From Escherichia coli (GTDB lineage: Bacteria; Pseudomonadota; Gammaproteobacteria; Enterobacterales; Enterobacteriaceae): DNA of 64,000 nucleotides. The stretch lies in the NCBI RefSeq assembly GCF_003334765.1, contig NZ_QOWT01000001.1. One strand, 5' to 3'. Below, in pieces: positions 11,093 to 63,471 of this stretch. The position numbers were made by a program, and so were the translations under genes. Position 1 is the stretch's first letter, and every line of letters starts with the position of its first letter. A model generated the notes under the pieces. It searched no databases, had not been told where the DNA came from, and was given only the letters and a program-made list of their open reading frames with translations.

Positions 11093-11179
11093 AACACATC
11101 AGATTTCCTGGTGTAACGAATTTTTTAAGTGCTTCTTGCTTAAGCAAGTTTCATCCCGACCCCCTCAGGGTCGGGATTT
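11093..11179 (+). ncRNA. dsrA: DsrA small regulatory RNA
   Basis: Sequence aacacatcagatttcctggtgtaacgaattttttaagtgcttcttgcttaagcaagtttcatcccgaccccctcagggtcgggattt matches remembered DsrA, including its terminator hairpin. Confidence 0.85.
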
Positions 11180-19853: not shown

Positions 19854-23178
<3,325 letters not shown>

Positions 23179-23392
23179 CGCGCACCTCGTGGCTGATTAT
23201 GGACGGCGTTATTGGCAAAGTGGAACAAGACTCACTCCCGGGTCAGCAAACTCGAAAAATTGACGCTCCCATTATTTGTGCTTTCGTTTTTTTCTATCCG
23301 CCAATAAACCCGTTTTTTTGTTGCTATTTAGCGCCTTTGTCTTATTGACTTACTGGTAGGCTTTGCTACCAGAAATTATCCGGGAGATGAAA

Positions 23393-23707
23393 ATGTCAGC
23401 GATACAGGGGATTGAAGGGGTTATCAGCCAGTTACAGACCACGGCGATGAGTGCGCGTGCGCAGGAATCACTGCCGCAACCGACAATTAGTTTTGCCGGG
23501 CAGCTGCACGCCGCGCTCGATCGCATAAGCGATACACAAACAGCCGCCCGCACGCAGGCAGAAAAATTCACCCTCGGTGAGCCCGGCGTGGCGCTAAACG
23601 ATGTGATGACCGATATGCAAAAAGCCTCAGTTTCTATGCAAATGGGGATTCAGGTGCGTAATAAGCTGGTGGCGGCGTATCAGGAAGTGATGTCCATGCA
23701 GGTGTAG
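23393..23707 (+). CDS. fliE: flagellar hook-basal body protein FliE
   Basis: ORF track 23363..23707; start at ATG 23393 giving [15 protein letters not shown]...; divergent from fliF. Confidence 0.9.
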
Positions 23708-24050
23708 GTTTTGTAACCTGTTGACTATGCTTGTTTATTATATCCGATCCCACAGCGTGGGGCATGGATGGGGCAAACTCACTCAATTTCTGGTTTAAAA
23801 TGGATACCTGATCCTGAAAGTTTTCTGCCATCCACGATCCGTAAACGCGATAACATGTTTTGTCTTCGCTTTGCTCCCAGGAAGAGTGAACTCATTCGTT
23901 AGCCTGGGGTTCCTTCTGATCATTATTGTTCCTGCCTTTATCTCTTGCCACGCCAGAGCCCCCTGGATACACATACACCAGGATGAAAACGGTGAGTTGT
24001 GTTCAAACTGTAGTACAATTCTCTCCAGTATGAACAGGAAAGAATATGCT

Positions 24051-24383
24051 ATGAACCCTTATATTTATCTTGGTGGCGCAATACTTGCAGAGGTCATTGG
24101 TACAACCTTAATGAAGTTTTCAGAGGGGTTTACACGGTTATGGCCCTCTGTTGGCACAATTATTTGCTATTGTGCATCATTCTGGTTATTAGCTCAGACG
24201 CTGGCTTATATACCTACAGGGATTGCTTATGCTATCTGGTCAGGCGTCGGTATCGTTCTGATTAGTTTGCTTTCCTGGGGATTTTTTGGTCAACGACTGG
24301 ACCTGCCAGCTATCATAGGCATGATGTTGATTTGTGCCGGTGTGTTAGTCATTAACTTGTTGTCACGAAGTGCACCGCATTAA
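24051..24383 (+). CDS. emrE: SMR-family multidrug efflux transporter EmrE
   Basis: ORF track 23871..24383; internal ATG 24051 gives 110 aa MNPYIYLGGAILAEVIGTTLMKFSEGFTRLWPSVG... with four TM segments. Confidence 0.85.
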   Translation: MNPYIYLGGAILAEVIGTTLMKFSEGFTRLWPSVGTIICYCASFWLLAQTLAYIPTGIAYAIWSGVGIVLISLLSWGFFGQRLDLPAIIGMMLICAGVLVINLLSRSAPH

Positions 24384-24551
24384 AAAATAATTATCCTTGA
24401 GATAACAGGAATCTGATTTGTGCATATTATGGCTAATGTTCGGGGCACCTTTATAATTATGATTGCATTTGCGCGATCATTGCGCCTTTATGCATAATGA
24501 GATCAAGGCACATCAAATAAAATAACGATAGGTCACAACAATGAGGTTTTT

Positions 24552-25103
24552 ATGAAAAAACTTATCGTTTCAAGTGTATTGGCATTCATAACATTTTCTG
24601 CGCAGGCCGCAGCATTTCAGGTCACTAGTAATGAAATAAAAACAGGAGAGCAACTTACAACGTCTCATGTATTTTCTGGATTTGGGTGTGAAGGTGGTAA
24701 TACATCGCCCTCATTAACCTGGTCTGGTGCTCCTGAAGGCACCAAAAGCTTTGCCGTAACTGTGTATGATCCAGATGCTCCTACAGGCAGTGGATGGTGG
24801 CACTGGACTGTTGCTAATATTCCAGCAACTGTAACATATTTGCCCGCTGATGCAGGAAGACGTGATGGTACAAAACTTCCGACTGGTGCTGTTCAAGGCC
24901 GAAATGATTTTGGTTATGCAGGATTTGGTGGAGCATGTCCTCCCAAAGGAGATAAACCCCATCATTACCAGTTTAAAGTATGGGCTCTAAAAACTGATAA
25001 AATTCCTGTGGATTCTAATTCCAGCGGAGCGTTAGTTGGTTATATGCTTAATGCCAATAAAATTGCAACCGCTGAGATAACACCAGTTTATGAGATAAAG
25101 TAG
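24552..25103 (+). CDS. ybcL: periplasmic PEBP/RKIP-family protein YbcL
   Basis: 183 aa ORF with signal peptide and PEBP-like motifs (VYDPDAP..., GDKPHHYQFKVWAL). Confidence 0.8.
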   Translation: MKKLIVSSVLAFITFSAQAAAFQVTSNEIKTGEQLTTSHVFSGFGCEGGNTSPSLTWSGAPEGTKSFAVTVYDPDAPTGSGWWHWTVANIPATVTYLPADAGRRDGTKLPTGAVQGRNDFGYAGFGGACPPKGDKPHHYQFKVWALKTDKIPVDSNSSGALVGYMLNANKIATAEITPVYEIK

Positions 25104-25112
25104 GGTAAGAGT

Positions 25113-25910
25113 ATGCTGGCAAAAGATAAGACTAACCTAAAGATTGAAGAAATACGGATGCATAAACATCATGAGATTCACAGGGTTAAGCCTCTTATGC
25201 CAGCTTTATGTCGTATCCGTCAGGGAAAAAAAGTTATCAATTGGGAGACGCATAGTCTAACTGTTGATAATAATCAGATAATATTATTTCCCTGTGGATA
25301 TGAATTTTATATTGCGAATTATCCAGAAGCAGGTCTTTATCTTGCAGAAATGCTTTATTATCCCATTGATCTAATTGAAAAGTTTCAAAAATTTTATGCG
25401 ATAACTGATCAAATTCGTAACACGACAGGTTTCTGCTTACCTCAGAACCCCGAGTTAATATATTGTTGGGAGCAACTAAAAACATCTATTTCCCGAGGCT
25501 TCTCAACGCAAATTCAGGAACACTTAGCAATGGGCGTTCTACTTTCATTAGGAGCACATCATGTTAATTGTTTACTTTTATCAGATAGTAAACAATCATT
25601 AATAAGTCGTTGTTATAACCTAATGCTATCCGAACCTGGAACAAAATGGACAGCAAACAAGGTAGCGAGATATCTCTACATTTCTGTTTCCACATTGCAT
25701 CGCCGTCTGGCAAGCGAGGGAGTAAGTTTTCAAAGTATATTGGACGACGTGAGGTTAAATAATGCGTTGTCTGCTATACAAACGACAGTAAAACCCATCA
25801 GCGAGATTGCCAGGGAAAATGGTTACAAGTGTCCTTCTCGTTTTACTGAAAGGTTCCATAATCGTTTTAAGATAACACCAAGAGAGCTAAGAAAAGCGTC
25901 CAGAGAGTAA
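25113..25910 (+). CDS. ybcM: AraC-family transcriptional regulator YbcM-like
   Basis: 265 aa ORF with C-terminal AraC-type HTH; very AT-rich. Confidence 0.75.
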
Positions 25911-26066
25911 AAGTATTTTATGAAGGAGCAACAGCATCGATTTTTATTTTGGAAAATAAATACGGCATACTCAACCTATTGGAGTCTGAACAATCCGGTG
26001 ACTTCTGCGCTAATCGGGGACGTTTCTAAGCACATATAATTGATACTATCTTCCTCCATCACAATT

Positions 26067-26591
26067 TCAGAAATGCACGTGTGATTTTTTTGCATCCGGC
26101 GTTTGGACTATGTGGAGCTCAAGAGTGGGAAAGTTACAAGAGGTTGAGGGGATAATTAAAGGGATGCTTATGACATTAGATATCCGGTTAGGTGCGGATA
26201 TCGTTGTTATTAAATCTAGTTGATACGTTAAGATGCAGCTACTGACAAAATAGCCAGGACTCCACAAAACGCCTTTGTCGTAATACCTGACTGCAATATC
26301 TGGTCGATCTCGTCGCAGTAACCTACTCGATACGCCTTTGAGGCTGTTTACCAGACTGGATATCGCCAGTTTGGGAGGATAGTTAATTAACAAATGGACG
26401 TGATCTGGTCCGCCATCCATTTCAACCCGTTCAGCTTCAAAATCAGCACATACATTTGAAAAGTAAGTGCGTAGTTTTTCTGTCGCGTCATGGTCAAAAA
26501 TCTGACGTCGGTATTTAGTAACGAAGACTAGGTGAACATGCTTCAGGAAAACACAATGCCTTCCGCGTCGGATATCGGTTTCTTTTTTCAT
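26067..26591 (-). CDS. tnpA: IS200/IS605-family transposase TnpA (HuH Y1), possibly 3'-altered
   Basis: ORF track 26067..26636; MKKETDIRRGRHCVFLKHVHLVFVTKYRR... with HuH motif HVHLL; C-terminal tail is low-complexity and longer than typical TnpA. Confidence 0.7.
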   Translation of the reverse strand: MKKETDIRRGRHCVFLKHVHLVFVTKYRRQIFDHDATEKLRTYFSNVCADFEAERVEMDGGPDHVHLLINYPPKLAISSLVNSLKGVSSRLLRRDRPDIAVRYYDKGVLWSPGYFVSSCILTYQLDLITTISAPNRISNVISIPLIIPSTSCNFPTLELHIVQTPDAKKSHVHF

Positions 26592-26905
26592 AGGCCAAAG
26601 TATGATTTGGCCCATGAAACGACTACAGGCATTCAAATTCCGGTTAAGACCAGGTGGTCAACAGGAGCGTGAAATGAGGCGCTTCGCAGGCGCATGTCGT
26701 TTCGTTTTCAATCGTGCTCTGGCGCTTCAGAATGAGAATCATGAGGCCGGTAATAAATACATCCCTTACGGGAAAATGGCTTCCTGGTTGGTTGAGTGGA
26801 AAAATGCCACTGAAACGCAATGGCTTAAAGATTCGCCCTCACAGCCATTGCAACAGTCACTGAAAGACCCTGAGCGGGCTTACAAAAACTTCTTCCGGCT
26901 TCGTC
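26067..26905. mobile_element. degenerate IS200/IS605-family insertion sequence (tnpA plus 5' fragment of tnpB)
   Basis: Divergent tnpA / tnpB start codons about 25 bp apart; tnpB homology ends after about 95 codons; exact ends not determined. Confidence 0.6.
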
Positions 26906-26943
26906 ACCACGCTCAAACGGTGTGCTACCTATCGCGGCTATAA
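26614..26943 (+). pseudogene. tnpB: TnpB (OrfB) N-terminal fragment
   Basis: ORF track 26602..26943; MKRLQAFKFRLRPGGQQEREMRRFAGACRFVFNRAL... matches TnpB N-termini for about 95 aa, then an unrelated tail and stop. Confidence 0.7.
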
Positions 26944-27322
26944 AAACAGCTTGTCCATCAGCACGATAGATAAAATAAGGCTGCTTTTTGTCGCCTTCTT
27001 TTTTCCACTCAAACCAGCCATCGGCAAAACAGATTGCCCGACCATGTTGCCAGAGCGGTTTAAACATGTGACTGGTTGCGGCAGTTTCTACGCGGGCGTT
27101 AATCAGCGGCGGTTTATCCCACCATCCGGGAGCATATCCCCAGAAAACCGGATCCAGATGAAGGTGTTCATCACGTTCACTGAGCAGAAGGACTTTGGTT
27201 CCCGGCGCGACGTTGTATCTGCCAATAGGTTCGGGATCGTAGGGAATATCGCGTTCAATATCTTCCGCGAGAAGCGCAAGGTAATCTTCACGCGTTTGGG
27301 ATTGGGCAAAGCGTCCACACAT
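26825..27322 (-). pseudogene. yedK: SOS-response associated peptidase YedK, 3'-truncated and fused to IS sequence
   Basis: 165 aa ORF MCGRFAQSQTREDYLALLAEDIERDIPYDPEP... is shorter than the 222 aa I recall for full-length YedK; its 3' part overlaps the tnpB fragment on the opposite strand. Confidence 0.7.
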
Positions 27323-27430
27323 AGAAACCTCCTGAGGTCACACTGAAAAGAATAGGAGAGGGGGCGGGTTAAATCTATGTGATAGAGAGGCAACGATATT
27401 CCCGCTGTGGGCCACAGCGGGAATGAGGGA

Positions 27431-27664
27431 TTACTTCTGAATTAAATAACGAATGGTCGGCCCGTCTTGCTGAATATCCAGCACCGTATAGCCGTGATTA
27501 CGCGCATCCAGTGGAATATTATTGATCGACTGCGGACAGTCGCTCACCACTTCCAGGATCTCCCCTTTTTTTAACTGCGGCATCGCCTCAAGGGTTGCGA
27601 CTGCCGGATAAGGGCAGGGTTCACCCACCATATCAAGACGGTAATCAGGAACGATATTTTTCAT
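27431..27664 (-). CDS. yedF: TusA-like sulfurtransferase YedF
   Basis: 77 aa ORF with CPxP motif (GEPCPYP). Confidence 0.88.
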   Translation of the reverse strand: MKNIVPDYRLDMVGEPCPYPAVATLEAMPQLKKGEILEVVSDCPQSINNIPLDARNHGYTVLDIQQDGPTIRYLIQK

Positions 27665-28866
27665 GCGATCTCCTTAGCAGTCTGCGGTGCCGCACGGCGG
27701 AAGAAGCGTTTTTCCCAGCCAATAATCAACATTAGAGCAGCAAACAACAGCAAATATGTCACCAGCAGGCCGCCCATCGGGCCAAAGGTTTTCAGCAGGT
27801 TGATTTTGTCCCAGTCGGTGGCCAGCGCCGGAGCGAAATCATCCCAGTAGTACGCCAGAATCGTTGAGCCGATCACGTTGCCCAGACCGACCCACCAGTA
27901 GTGCACCTGGCCTTCTACCGCGCGGTACATCCAGCCGGTTTCGCAGCCGCCTGCCAGCACGATGCCAAAACCAAACAGTAAACCACCAATTACCGCGTTT
28001 GGTCCCGCCCACATGATTTTGGGTTCAACGCCTAACTGTACGTAACTGAAGATCCCGATGGCACTTACCGCCATACCGATAATGATTGCTTTCGCCATAT
28101 GGGTACGTCCGGTGATCCACATATCGCGGAACGCCGAAGTAAAGCAGATTTGCGCACGTTCAATCAGTAAACCAAAGCCGACGCCAAACAGCATTGCCAG
28201 CCCCAGTTTGGGCTGGTTCATCGCCGTCAGCAGCGCCCAGCCCAGCAGGCCGAAAAAGACCAGCATCCCGAGACGAAAACGACGCCGCGCCTGATCCGGT
28301 TTTTGCGTCAACGGTGAGGCAGCAGAAACTTTCTGCATTTTCACGGGAATACGGAAGATGGGCAGAAGGGTAAAGCGCGCGCCAAACCATGAACCAATGG
28401 CAGTGGCGATGGCAAAGAACCAGGCGTGCAGCGAGAACTGTGGAATTCCGGTAAAGAACGCCGCCAGGTTACAGCCCATTGCCAGACGTGCGCCAAAACC
28501 GGCGATAATACCGCCAATGATGGCCTGCATAATGCGGATACGGCTGCGCGGCATGCGCAGTTTGACATTGTTGGCCCACAGCGCTGCGGCAAAACAGCCG
28601 CCAAACATACCGAGGATCATCATTCCGTCGATGCGGGTTAATGGCGATCCTTCCAGATGGATAATTTTAAAATAACCCCACTCTTCAGCATGGACGCCGA
28701 ACAACTGCAGGAGCTGACCGCCCCAACGGGTAAATTCACCTGTGACAGCCCAAAAGGTGCCAGTGATGCCAAAATAGTAAGTGGAGAGAATACCCGCCGC
28801 GATGACCGCGGGGATGGGCGCCCAGAATTTAATCAACCAGGCGTGTTTGAATTGCTGCCATGACAT
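27661..28866 (-). CDS. yedE: inner membrane transporter YedE (selenium/sulfur-compound transport family)
   Basis: 401 aa polytopic membrane ORF overlapping yedF start. Confidence 0.88.
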   Translation of the reverse strand: MSWQQFKHAWLIKFWAPIPAVIAAGILSTYYFGITGTFWAVTGEFTRWGGQLLQLFGVHAEEWGYFKIIHLEGSPLTRIDGMMILGMFGGCFAAALWANNVKLRMPRSRIRIMQAIIGGIIAGFGARLAMGCNLAAFFTGIPQFSLHAWFFAIATAIGSWFGARFTLLPIFRIPVKMQKVSAASPLTQKPDQARRRFRLGMLVFFGLLGWALLTAMNQPKLGLAMLFGVGFGLLIERAQICFTSAFRDMWITGRTHMAKAIIIGMAVSAIGIFSYVQLGVEPKIMWAGPNAVIGGLLFGFGIVLAGGCETGWMYRAVEGQVHYWWVGLGNVIGSTILAYYWDDFAPALATDWDKINLLKTFGPMGGLLVTYLLLFAALMLIIGWEKRFFRRAAPQTAKEIA

Positions 28867-44852: not shown

Positions 44853-44928
<76 letters not shown>

Positions 44929-44982
44929 GTTTAAAAGACATCGGCCTCAAGCGGATGTCTGGCTGAAAGGCCTGAAGAATTT

Positions 44983-45056
44983 GGCGCGTTAACAAAGCGG
45001 TTATGTAGCGGATTGCAAATCCGTCTAGTCCGGTTCGACTCCGGAACGCGCCTCCA
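44983..45056 (+). tRNA. cysT: tRNA-Cys (anticodon GCA)
   Basis: ggcgcgttaacaaagcggttatgtagcggattgcaaatccg...cgcgcctcca. Confidence 0.9.
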
Positions 45057-45068
45057 CTTTCTTCCCGA

Positions 45069-45155
45069 GCCCGGATGGTGGAATCGGTAGACACAAGGGA
45101 TTTAAAATCCCTCGGCGTTCGCGCTGTGCGGGTTCAAGTCCCGCTCCGGGTACCA
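45069..45155 (+). tRNA. leuZ: tRNA-Leu (anticodon TAA, long variable arm)
   Basis: gcccggatggtggaatcggtagacacaagggatttaaaatccc...gggttcaagtcccgctccgggtacca. Confidence 0.9.
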
Positions 45156-63358: not shown

Positions 63359-63386
63359 TTCTCCCGATTTCCTCAATTGAAATGAA

Positions 63387-63414
63387 CCCGATGATCTGCG
63401 CATCGGGTTTTTTA
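63387..63414 (+). terminator. Rho-independent terminator after cheW
   Basis: cccgatgatctgcgcatcggg hairpin followed by tttttta. Confidence 0.7.
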
Positions 63415-63444
63415 TTTCAATTTCGCGGCGGGTGGCATCAGCAA

Positions 63445-63471
63445 TAAAGTTTCCCCCCTCCTTGCCGATAA
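63445..63471 (+). promoter_or_regulatory. sigma-28 (FliA) promoter of tar
   Basis: Perfect TAAAGTTT-N11-GCCGATAA about 30 bp upstream of the tar ATG. Confidence 0.8.

Follow-up and report, generated by a model that had tools for sequence, protein, structure and literature searches.

We analysed a 64,000-nt stretch of Escherichia coli DNA (contig NZ_QOWT01000001.1 of assembly GCF_003334765.1; hereafter the window) that carries ybcL, the gene for a Raf-kinase-inhibitor-like protein of the PEBP family, and directly behind it ybcM, the gene for an AraC-family regulator. It is quite probable that the two genes form an operon, ybcLM, which spreads horizontally as a mobile two-gene cassette, is autoregulated by YbcM and plays a role in bacterial physiology. 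The genes are annotated, the structure of YbcL is solved and the regulatory link is published; the operon is thus already known, and what our follow-up adds is small, namely the conservation of the cassette, its operator and the presence of Ala at residue 99 of YbcL. The elements of the operon in the window are as follows.

24468-24498, plus strand: putative YbcM operator, a direct repeat of TTTGCGCGAT (24468-24477) and TATGCATAAT (24489-24498) in a 21-bp register
24518-24523, plus strand: candidate -10 hexamer TAAAAT, proposed because most of the 11 upstream regions compared have TAAAAT, TAGAAT or TACAAT
24543-24546, plus strand: Shine-Dalgarno sequence GAGG upstream of ybcL
24552-25103, plus strand: ybcL, precursor of a periplasmic PEBP/RKIP-like protein, 183 aa; codon 99 (24846-24848) is GCT, Ala
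25113-25910, plus strand: ybcM, AraC/XylS-family regulator, 265 aa, with an N-terminal ExsA_N-like and a C-terminal HTH_18 domain

The ybcLM gene pair

An earlier note on this DNA had described ybcL and an AraC-family gene at this place, and both were found as intact open reading frames on a common strand, with profile and PDB matches to support their identities. In RefSeq, identical copies are named 'Raf kinase inhibitor-like protein YbcL' and 'ybcM helix-turn-helix transcriptional regulator'. The note had placed the two genes 10 bp apart; the adjacency is real, whereas the exact distance is 9 nt (25104-25112), the junction being TAG-GGTAAGAGT-ATG with a weak ribosome-binding site. This tight junction is kept across orthologues, and in K-12 it is likewise 9 nt long. 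A scan for terminators and generic sigma-70 promoters over 23300-26700 detected no terminator between ybcL and ybcM and none after ybcM. Because the gap is only 9 nt and no terminator-like site separates the genes, both are most likely under a single promoter located ahead of ybcL, and the pair would be co-transcribed in the window.

The YbcL of the window matched the NCBIfam equivalog model of YbcL (NF007330) over residues 1-183 with 401.8 bits (cut-off 277) and TIGR00481 with 183.7 bits (cut-off 57.75). Its residues 20-183 align with PDB 1FUX, the crystal structure of K-12 YbcL (E=2e-110), from which it differs by four natural substitutions and by one engineered residue of the crystallised construct; the PEBP fold that the earlier note had claimed is therefore that of a solved structure. 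The PEBP pocket motif DPDxP with the following His is present as YDPDAPTGSGWWHW (residues 72-85) and the GGACPP...PHHY region as GGACPPKGDKPHHY (residues 126-139), and both motifs are nearly identical in all 10 orthologues read. The N-terminus consists of MKK, a 13-residue hydrophobic stretch and AQA-AA, which predicts a Sec-type signal peptide of about residues 1-19 or 1-21. The same kind of N-terminus, a signal-like segment ending in A/V-x-A, occurs in all YbcL orthologues, and the 1FUX chain begins at residue 20. YbcL is thus probably exported via the Sec-type signal peptide and would act as a PEBP-fold protein of the periplasm; a periplasmic location and release by lysis have been reported (PMC4810123).

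A conserved direct repeat upstream of ybcL

When the 220 nt upstream of the PEBP gene were aligned for 11 cassettes (see below for their origins), two copies of T(T/C)TGCA(C/T)GAT appeared in an exact 21-bp register, followed 19 nt further on by a TAAAAT-like hexamer. In the window this putative operator spans -84 to -54 relative to the ybcL ATG; its proximal half-site overlaps the expected -35 position by ~4 nt, and there is no good -35 hexamer at that position. With a weight matrix built from the eight non-Escherichia cassettes only and applied to both strands of the 64-kb window, the pair at 24468-24498 ranked first with 20.4 bits, as compared with a shuffle maximum of 13.7 on average (standard deviation 1.8, highest 18.5). 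The cassettes of Hafnia and Edwardsiella, which did not contribute to the matrix, each have a 21-bp-register pair that begins 84 nt ahead of the ATG, precisely the offset seen in the window, and no such pair was found upstream of two PEBP loci that lack an AraC partner. The second-best pair of the window (25318-25348, minus strand, inside ybcM) reached 18.3 bits, below the highest shuffle, in AT-rich coding sequence, and is probably due to chance.

Control of ybcL by its AraC-family neighbour, which the earlier note had recommended for testing, has been published for K-12. In Gao 2021, chromatin immunoprecipitation with exonuclease treatment (ChIP-exo) of YbcM in MG1655 gave its strongest site upstream of 'operon ybcLM', and this was called autoregulation (PMC8464067). 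The site (570015-570048) had a signal-to-noise ratio of 357, the highest of the 12 values compared, the next being ucpA with 81 (PMC8464067). These coordinates refer to NC_000913.2, which we checked against ucpA, and the footprint maps to 24451-24484 of the window, where the sequence is conserved. The proposed test of ybcL regulation has therefore largely been done in K-12.

At class II promoters of AraC/XylS-family regulators, two direct-repeat half-sites in a 21-bp register reach the -35 element (AraC I1-I2, XylS at Pm, RhaS). The TGCA-core repeats upstream of ybcLM resemble these sites in their register, in their short overlap with -35 and in the poor -35 sequence. Because this geometry resembles that of class II activation, we infer positive autoregulation: YbcM, itself a ToxT/Rns/CsvR-like protein, would bind the direct repeat at -84 to -54, its proximal copy reaching -35, and so autoregulate the ybcLM operon. 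Activation is established for the AraC, XylS and RhaS sites, whereas for YbcM it is deduced from this likeness, and Gao 2021 predicted repression. The operator at 24468-24498 and the promoter model for ybcLM, conserved across Enterobacterales, are a modest addition to the published regulation.

Several points weigh against this model. The K-12 ChIP-exo footprint comprises the distal half-site and 17 nt upstream of it and ends 5 nt before the proximal half-site, and ucpA, the second-strongest of the 12 sites compared, has a single half-site by the peak and no 21-bp pair. In addition, a site over -35 can also repress. Gao 2021 assigned the predicted role 'Repressor' to AraC-type candidates, of which YbcM is the representative (PMC8464067). 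The proposed ybcLM promoter was missed by the generic sigma-70 scan, which over the region scanned found fewer promoter-like sites than in shuffles. Finally, H-NS may keep the AT-rich block that holds the operon silent in laboratory culture.

A PEBP-AraC cassette in Enterobacterales

A protein search with YbcM returned 56 homologues at E<=1e-10, and all the named ones belong to Enterobacterales. A scan of species-representative genomes with YbcM retrieved only E. coli, E. albertii and a contaminated metagenome-assembled genome (MAG), and the distant homologues came from the protein search. Eight distant loci were read, those of Salmonella Oslo, Cedecea, Yersinia ruckeri, Salmonella houtenae, Brenneria, a Budviciaceae isolate, Lelliottia and one metagenome contig. 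The YbcM homologues in them are 36-63% identical to YbcM, and all eight have a PF01161 gene of 182-187 aa directly upstream on the same strand, with a gap of 9-44 nt or an overlap between the two genes. Every one of these PEBP partners has a signal-peptide-like N-terminus. The flanks are all different (Tn3 transposase/resolvase, TraG and an integrase, tau genes, ABC transporters, sodC), and the contexts of the cassette include a prophage, Tn3, a locus like an integrative and conjugative element, and the chromosome.

E. albertii also has the PEBP-AraC pair, and an AraC partner is present in the Hafnia and Edwardsiella loci, which were seeded from the PEBP side. Two PEBP loci labelled Xanthomonas and Burkholderia had no AraC partner, and the secreted PEBP, with thousands of matches, is far more widespread than the regulator. 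The earlier note was right to treat the two genes as a module, since they are adjacent in every Enterobacterales locus examined. These comparisons indicate that the PEBP and AraC genes form a two-gene unit that is both old and mobile, and this speaks for a core function in bacteria. A review of PEBP genomic contexts (PMC8793217) does not mention AraC, and the conserved cassette and its operator are absent from it.

Within E. coli, the census covered 5,426 complete genomes. The ybcLM stretch alone was present in 3,258 of them (~60%), including K-12 derivatives and Nissle 1917, and at least 80% of the segment 23300-27400 was found in one place in 2,597 (Megablast). As the pair also occurs in non-pathogenic Enterobacterales, it is not restricted to pathogens.

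Two records call for comment. SFGN01000137.1, a 5-kb contig labelled 'MAG: Lachnospiraceae bacterium', encodes a YbcM 99% identical to that of the window and probably entered the bin as E. coli contamination. A 400-aa ENA protein (P0001), encoded on a contig of 1.9 kb, has both a PEBP and an HTH_18 domain and may be a gene-call or assembly artefact that fuses ybcL and ybcM.

Predicted structure and likely physiological role of YbcM

The C-terminal HTH_18 domain of YbcM, a double helix-turn-helix that binds DNA (PF12833, E=3e-16, residues 185-261), is present in 31 of 31 family members, and sequence matches in the PDB were GadX, Rns, CsvR and ToxT. The Pfam ExsA_N match is weak in the window protein (E=0.052) and reaches E<=0.001 in 10 of the 31 homologues. 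An AlphaFold2 model built from the 31-sequence alignment had a predicted local distance difference test score (pLDDT) of 83 and a predicted template modelling score (pTM) of 0.76. Its best full-length PDB matches in Foldseek were ToxT, CsvR and Rns (E ~1e-13, template modelling score 0.64-0.76), and on this model YbcM would have an N-terminal, cupin-like regulatory domain of the ExsA_N type.

The predicted fold suggests that YbcM is a ligand-controlled regulator of the ToxT/Rns type, whose activity is probably modulated by a small ligand in the pocket of the N-terminal domain. Like ToxT, Rns and CsvR, which are fatty-acid-responsive virulence regulators of 260-276 aa, YbcM combines an ExsA_N-type domain with HTH_18 along its full predicted length. 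It is only 14-17% identical to them, however, and its target is a periplasmic PEBP gene instead of pili or toxin genes.

The phenotypes known from K-12 are consistent with a role in the physiology of the bacterium itself. Survival of H2O2 was 8-fold below wild type after deletion of ybcM (Gao 2021, PMC8464067), and killing by nalidixic acid, mitomycin C and peroxide was enhanced in a ybcM::Tn5 mutant (PMC2824699). In a 2022 meeting report, YbcM lowered the expression of motility genes and raised that of biofilm genes in MG1655 (PMC9966839). By comparison with these stress, motility and biofilm phenotypes, bacterial physiology is likely the primary role of the cassette. In Y. ruckeri (L013, 5327-6440) the genes behind the cassette encode a member of the glyoxalase family and a periplasmic Cu/Zn superoxide dismutase (sodC); the latter neighbour tallies with the oxidative-stress phenotype of ybcM in K-12 and, as a single locus, is suggestive.

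Residue 99 of YbcL

A review confirms what the earlier note had stated about uropathogenic E. coli (UPEC): the YbcL of this pathotype suppresses the migration of neutrophils across epithelia, both in vitro and in mice, and a 'single amino acid alteration' is involved (PMC4810123). We compared the window YbcL with those of K-12 and UTI89, the UPEC strain from which the neutrophil phenotype was described, as the earlier note had suggested, and found six and one differing residues, respectively. The only difference from UTI89 is at residue 99, which is Ala in the window, Thr in UTI89 and Val in K-12. Because position 99 is the sole Val-to-Thr change between K-12 and UTI89, it should, from this comparison, be the published alteration. 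With a 21-residue signal peptide, residue 99 is residue 78 of the mature protein, which we take to be the position of the 'V78T' change of Lau 2012. That study is said to have compared only the suppressive Thr allele with the non-suppressive Val allele. If so, the commonest E. coli allele, Ala99, is unassessed for the neutrophil effect.

Alleles were counted with exact 61-mers across the 5,426 E. coli genomes. Two Ala99 haplotypes were found in 1,112 and 1,065 genomes, giving at least 2,177 for Ala99 in total, and Thr99 was found in 386, including Nissle 1917 and ATCC 11775. A divergent allele of the K-12 type was present in about 600 genomes, with Val99 in both copies read (K-12 and a prophage of a gull isolate). 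Among the eight distant orthologues, five have Ala at this position and the rest have Met, Ser or other residues; E. albertii YbcL has Val. From the counts and the distant orthologues, Ala99 is the majority allele in E. coli, and it is probably also ancestral. The UPEC variant is distinguished by Thr at precursor residue 99, and the window YbcL, with Ala99, does not belong to it. The neutrophil effect seems to belong to the Thr99 allele of UPEC and not to the cassette as such.

Alternative explanations

The PEBP-AraC pair could itself be an envelope module, shared by Enterobacterales in general and responsive to a lipid or a fatty-acid-like molecule. YbcM would detect this signal through its N-terminal pocket and switch on the operon, a related phospho- or lipid ligand would be bound or processed by the periplasmic PEBP, and the neutrophil effect in UPEC would be a recent exaptation by the change from Ala99 to Thr. 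Such a module could account for both the stress and the motility phenotypes, but we hold it to be unlikely. The earlier note had raised a different use of the pair, a possible host-interaction module; as a dedicated one, YbcM would sense the host and induce YbcL, and the released YbcL would block neutrophil transmigration. The suppression of transepithelial neutrophil migration by UPEC YbcL in vitro and in mice (PMC4810123) agrees with it, as do the UPEC-type locus of the window, a YbcL one residue away from that of UTI89, and the fact that the closest predicted structural relatives of YbcM (ToxT, Rns and CsvR) are virulence regulators. However, the discriminating residue 99 is Ala in the window, not Thr, and Thr99 61-mers are found in 386 genomes versus at least 2,177 for Ala99. 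Carriers of the cassette include K-12, the probiotic Nissle, Cedecea, Brenneria, Lelliottia, Hafnia and Yersinia ruckeri, and among them are Enterobacterales associated with the environment, plants or fish; the known phenotypes in K-12 concern stress and motility. A host-interaction module is thus not supported for the Ala99 allele, and we consider it distinctly improbable.

A functional tie of the block to the flagellar regulon by position, for example by YbcM acting locally on fli promoters, would agree with three reports: YbcM down-regulates motility genes in MG1655 (meeting report, PMC9966839), a ybcL transposon mutant had reduced motility according to a fitness database (PMC8793217), and one K-12 ChIP-exo site of YbcM in Gao 2021 has lrhA as the nearest gene (PMC8464067). 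At lrhA, the peak lies inside the start of the coding sequence and no matching pair was found there. The motility effects in K-12 arise with ybcLM in the cryptic prophage DLP12, ~1.4 Mb from the fli genes, and position therefore gives no evidence of a functional tie to fli; moreover, K-12 has other cargo at the fliE site, and distant cassettes have no flagellar neighbours. A matrix search of the window for a YbcM operator at fli promoters gave none above the shuffles, the nearest being a chance-level pair (14.2 bits) within the coding sequence of fliE. With no operator link at the fli promoters of the window and a site that looks like an insertion hot spot, the flagellar adjacency offered by the earlier note as a regulatory clue did not hold up, and we think such a tie very unlikely. 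Least probable of all is that ybcL and ybcM are unrelated genes left side by side on a prophage remnant with no regulatory link. Both are AT-rich cargo, and their K-12 copies lie among unrelated prophage genes, but the pair, along with its operator, is conserved in unrelated contexts even where YbcM identity falls to 36%, and a K-12 ChIP-exo peak of YbcM lies upstream of ybcL (PMC8464067). This reading is effectively refuted.

Genomic context and neighbouring genes

The mobile ybcLM operon lies in an accessory block of the window, together with or next to the following features.

23855-26884, no strand: accessory AT-rich block, which by blastn and G+C (GC) profile replaces yedL-yedN-intG of K-12 (cryptic prophage PR-G) between fliE and yedK
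24051-24383, plus strand: emrE, small multidrug resistance (SMR) efflux gene; NCBIfam NF042984, 237.9 bits (cut-off 226)
26235-26898, no strand: IS200/IS605 remnant (tnpA pseudogene and N-terminal tnpB fragment), by NCBIfam matches and an identical RefSeq copy; bounds the block
26825-27322, minus strand: truncated yedK, abutting the IS200/IS605 remnant

Upstream of ybcL are fliF (minus strand), fliE (23393-23707) and emrE; downstream of ybcM are the IS200/IS605 remnant, truncated yedK, then yedF and yedE. The GC content is 36-43% across 24000-26499 versus 49-58% on either side, and homology to the K-12 fliE locus in blastn is limited to 23000-23854 and 26885-27700. The strongly AT-rich segment and the accessory block beside the fli genes that the earlier note described were thus borne out, and UTI89 has the pair at that locus too.

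UTI89 matches the window in gene order and chromosomal locus, has an identical EmrE and is 99.1% identical in DNA over 23300-26231; the YbcL proteins differ at 1 of 183 residues and the YbcM proteins at 3 of 265. The order in UTI89 is fliE-emrE-ybcL-ybcM, and the difference lies downstream, where an ompC-like porin gene and a complete yedK in UTI89 stand against the IS200/IS605 remnant and the truncated yedK in the window. K-12 has the orthologous operon (b0545-b0546) with the operator and promoter region kept and ~90% DNA identity over 24397-26117, but differs from the window in the protein sequences (YbcL at six residues, including Val99, and YbcM at 21) and in location. Its ybcLM lies in the lambdoid prophage DLP12 at argU, not at fliE, and a 2.08-kb ylcJ-ybcK segment separates emrE from ybcL. 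The portions of the window common to DLP12 are 23975-24392 and 24397-26117. Because K-12 carries the PR-G genes yedL, yedN and intG where the window carries emrE-ybcLM, the fliE-adjacent site looks like an insertion hot spot with different cargo in each strain. At the K-12 fliE locus (L023, 9503-9781), intG is an integrase pseudogene that overlaps the end of fliE, a sign that integration at this hot spot is old.

While emrE accompanies ybcLM in Escherichia, it is outside the cassette kept in other genera, and no SMR/EmrE-type Pfam match is listed among the genes of the distant cassette loci. In E. coli A1_136 (NZ_CP040390.1, 2352216-2360674), a block of the K-12 type, emrE-ylcJ-ybcK-ybcL-ybcM, is part of a more complete lambdoid prophage, with ren on one side and the nin region (ybcN, ninE, rusA, Q) on the other; the cassette thus belongs to the cargo of prophages. 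The ylcJ-ybcK segment, which encodes a large serine recombinase, is found in K-12 and in the prophage of the gull isolate, exactly between emrE and the ybcL promoter region (window 24392/24397). Directly upstream of the PEBP gene of Salmonella Oslo lies the gene for a Tn3 resolvase, another serine recombinase, so that recombinase genes recur next to the cassette in K-12, the gull-isolate prophage and Salmonella Oslo.

At the right end of the block (26067-27322), a 113-aa N-terminal TnpB fragment joins a 3'-truncated yedK, in which 143 of 222 residues matched. At the corresponding spot of strain XYEH3934, tnpB is full and yedK intact; because both genes are whole there, a deletion of ~1 kb seems to have removed the 3' ends of tnpB and yedK in the window. 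An Rfam scan of the whole window detected no RNA family inside or adjoining the ybcLM interval. The gathering-level matches elsewhere (2667-2756, 11093-11179, 44853-45152 and 63378-63455) were rseX, DsrA, three tRNAs and C0465, none of them unusual for this region of the E. coli chromosome.

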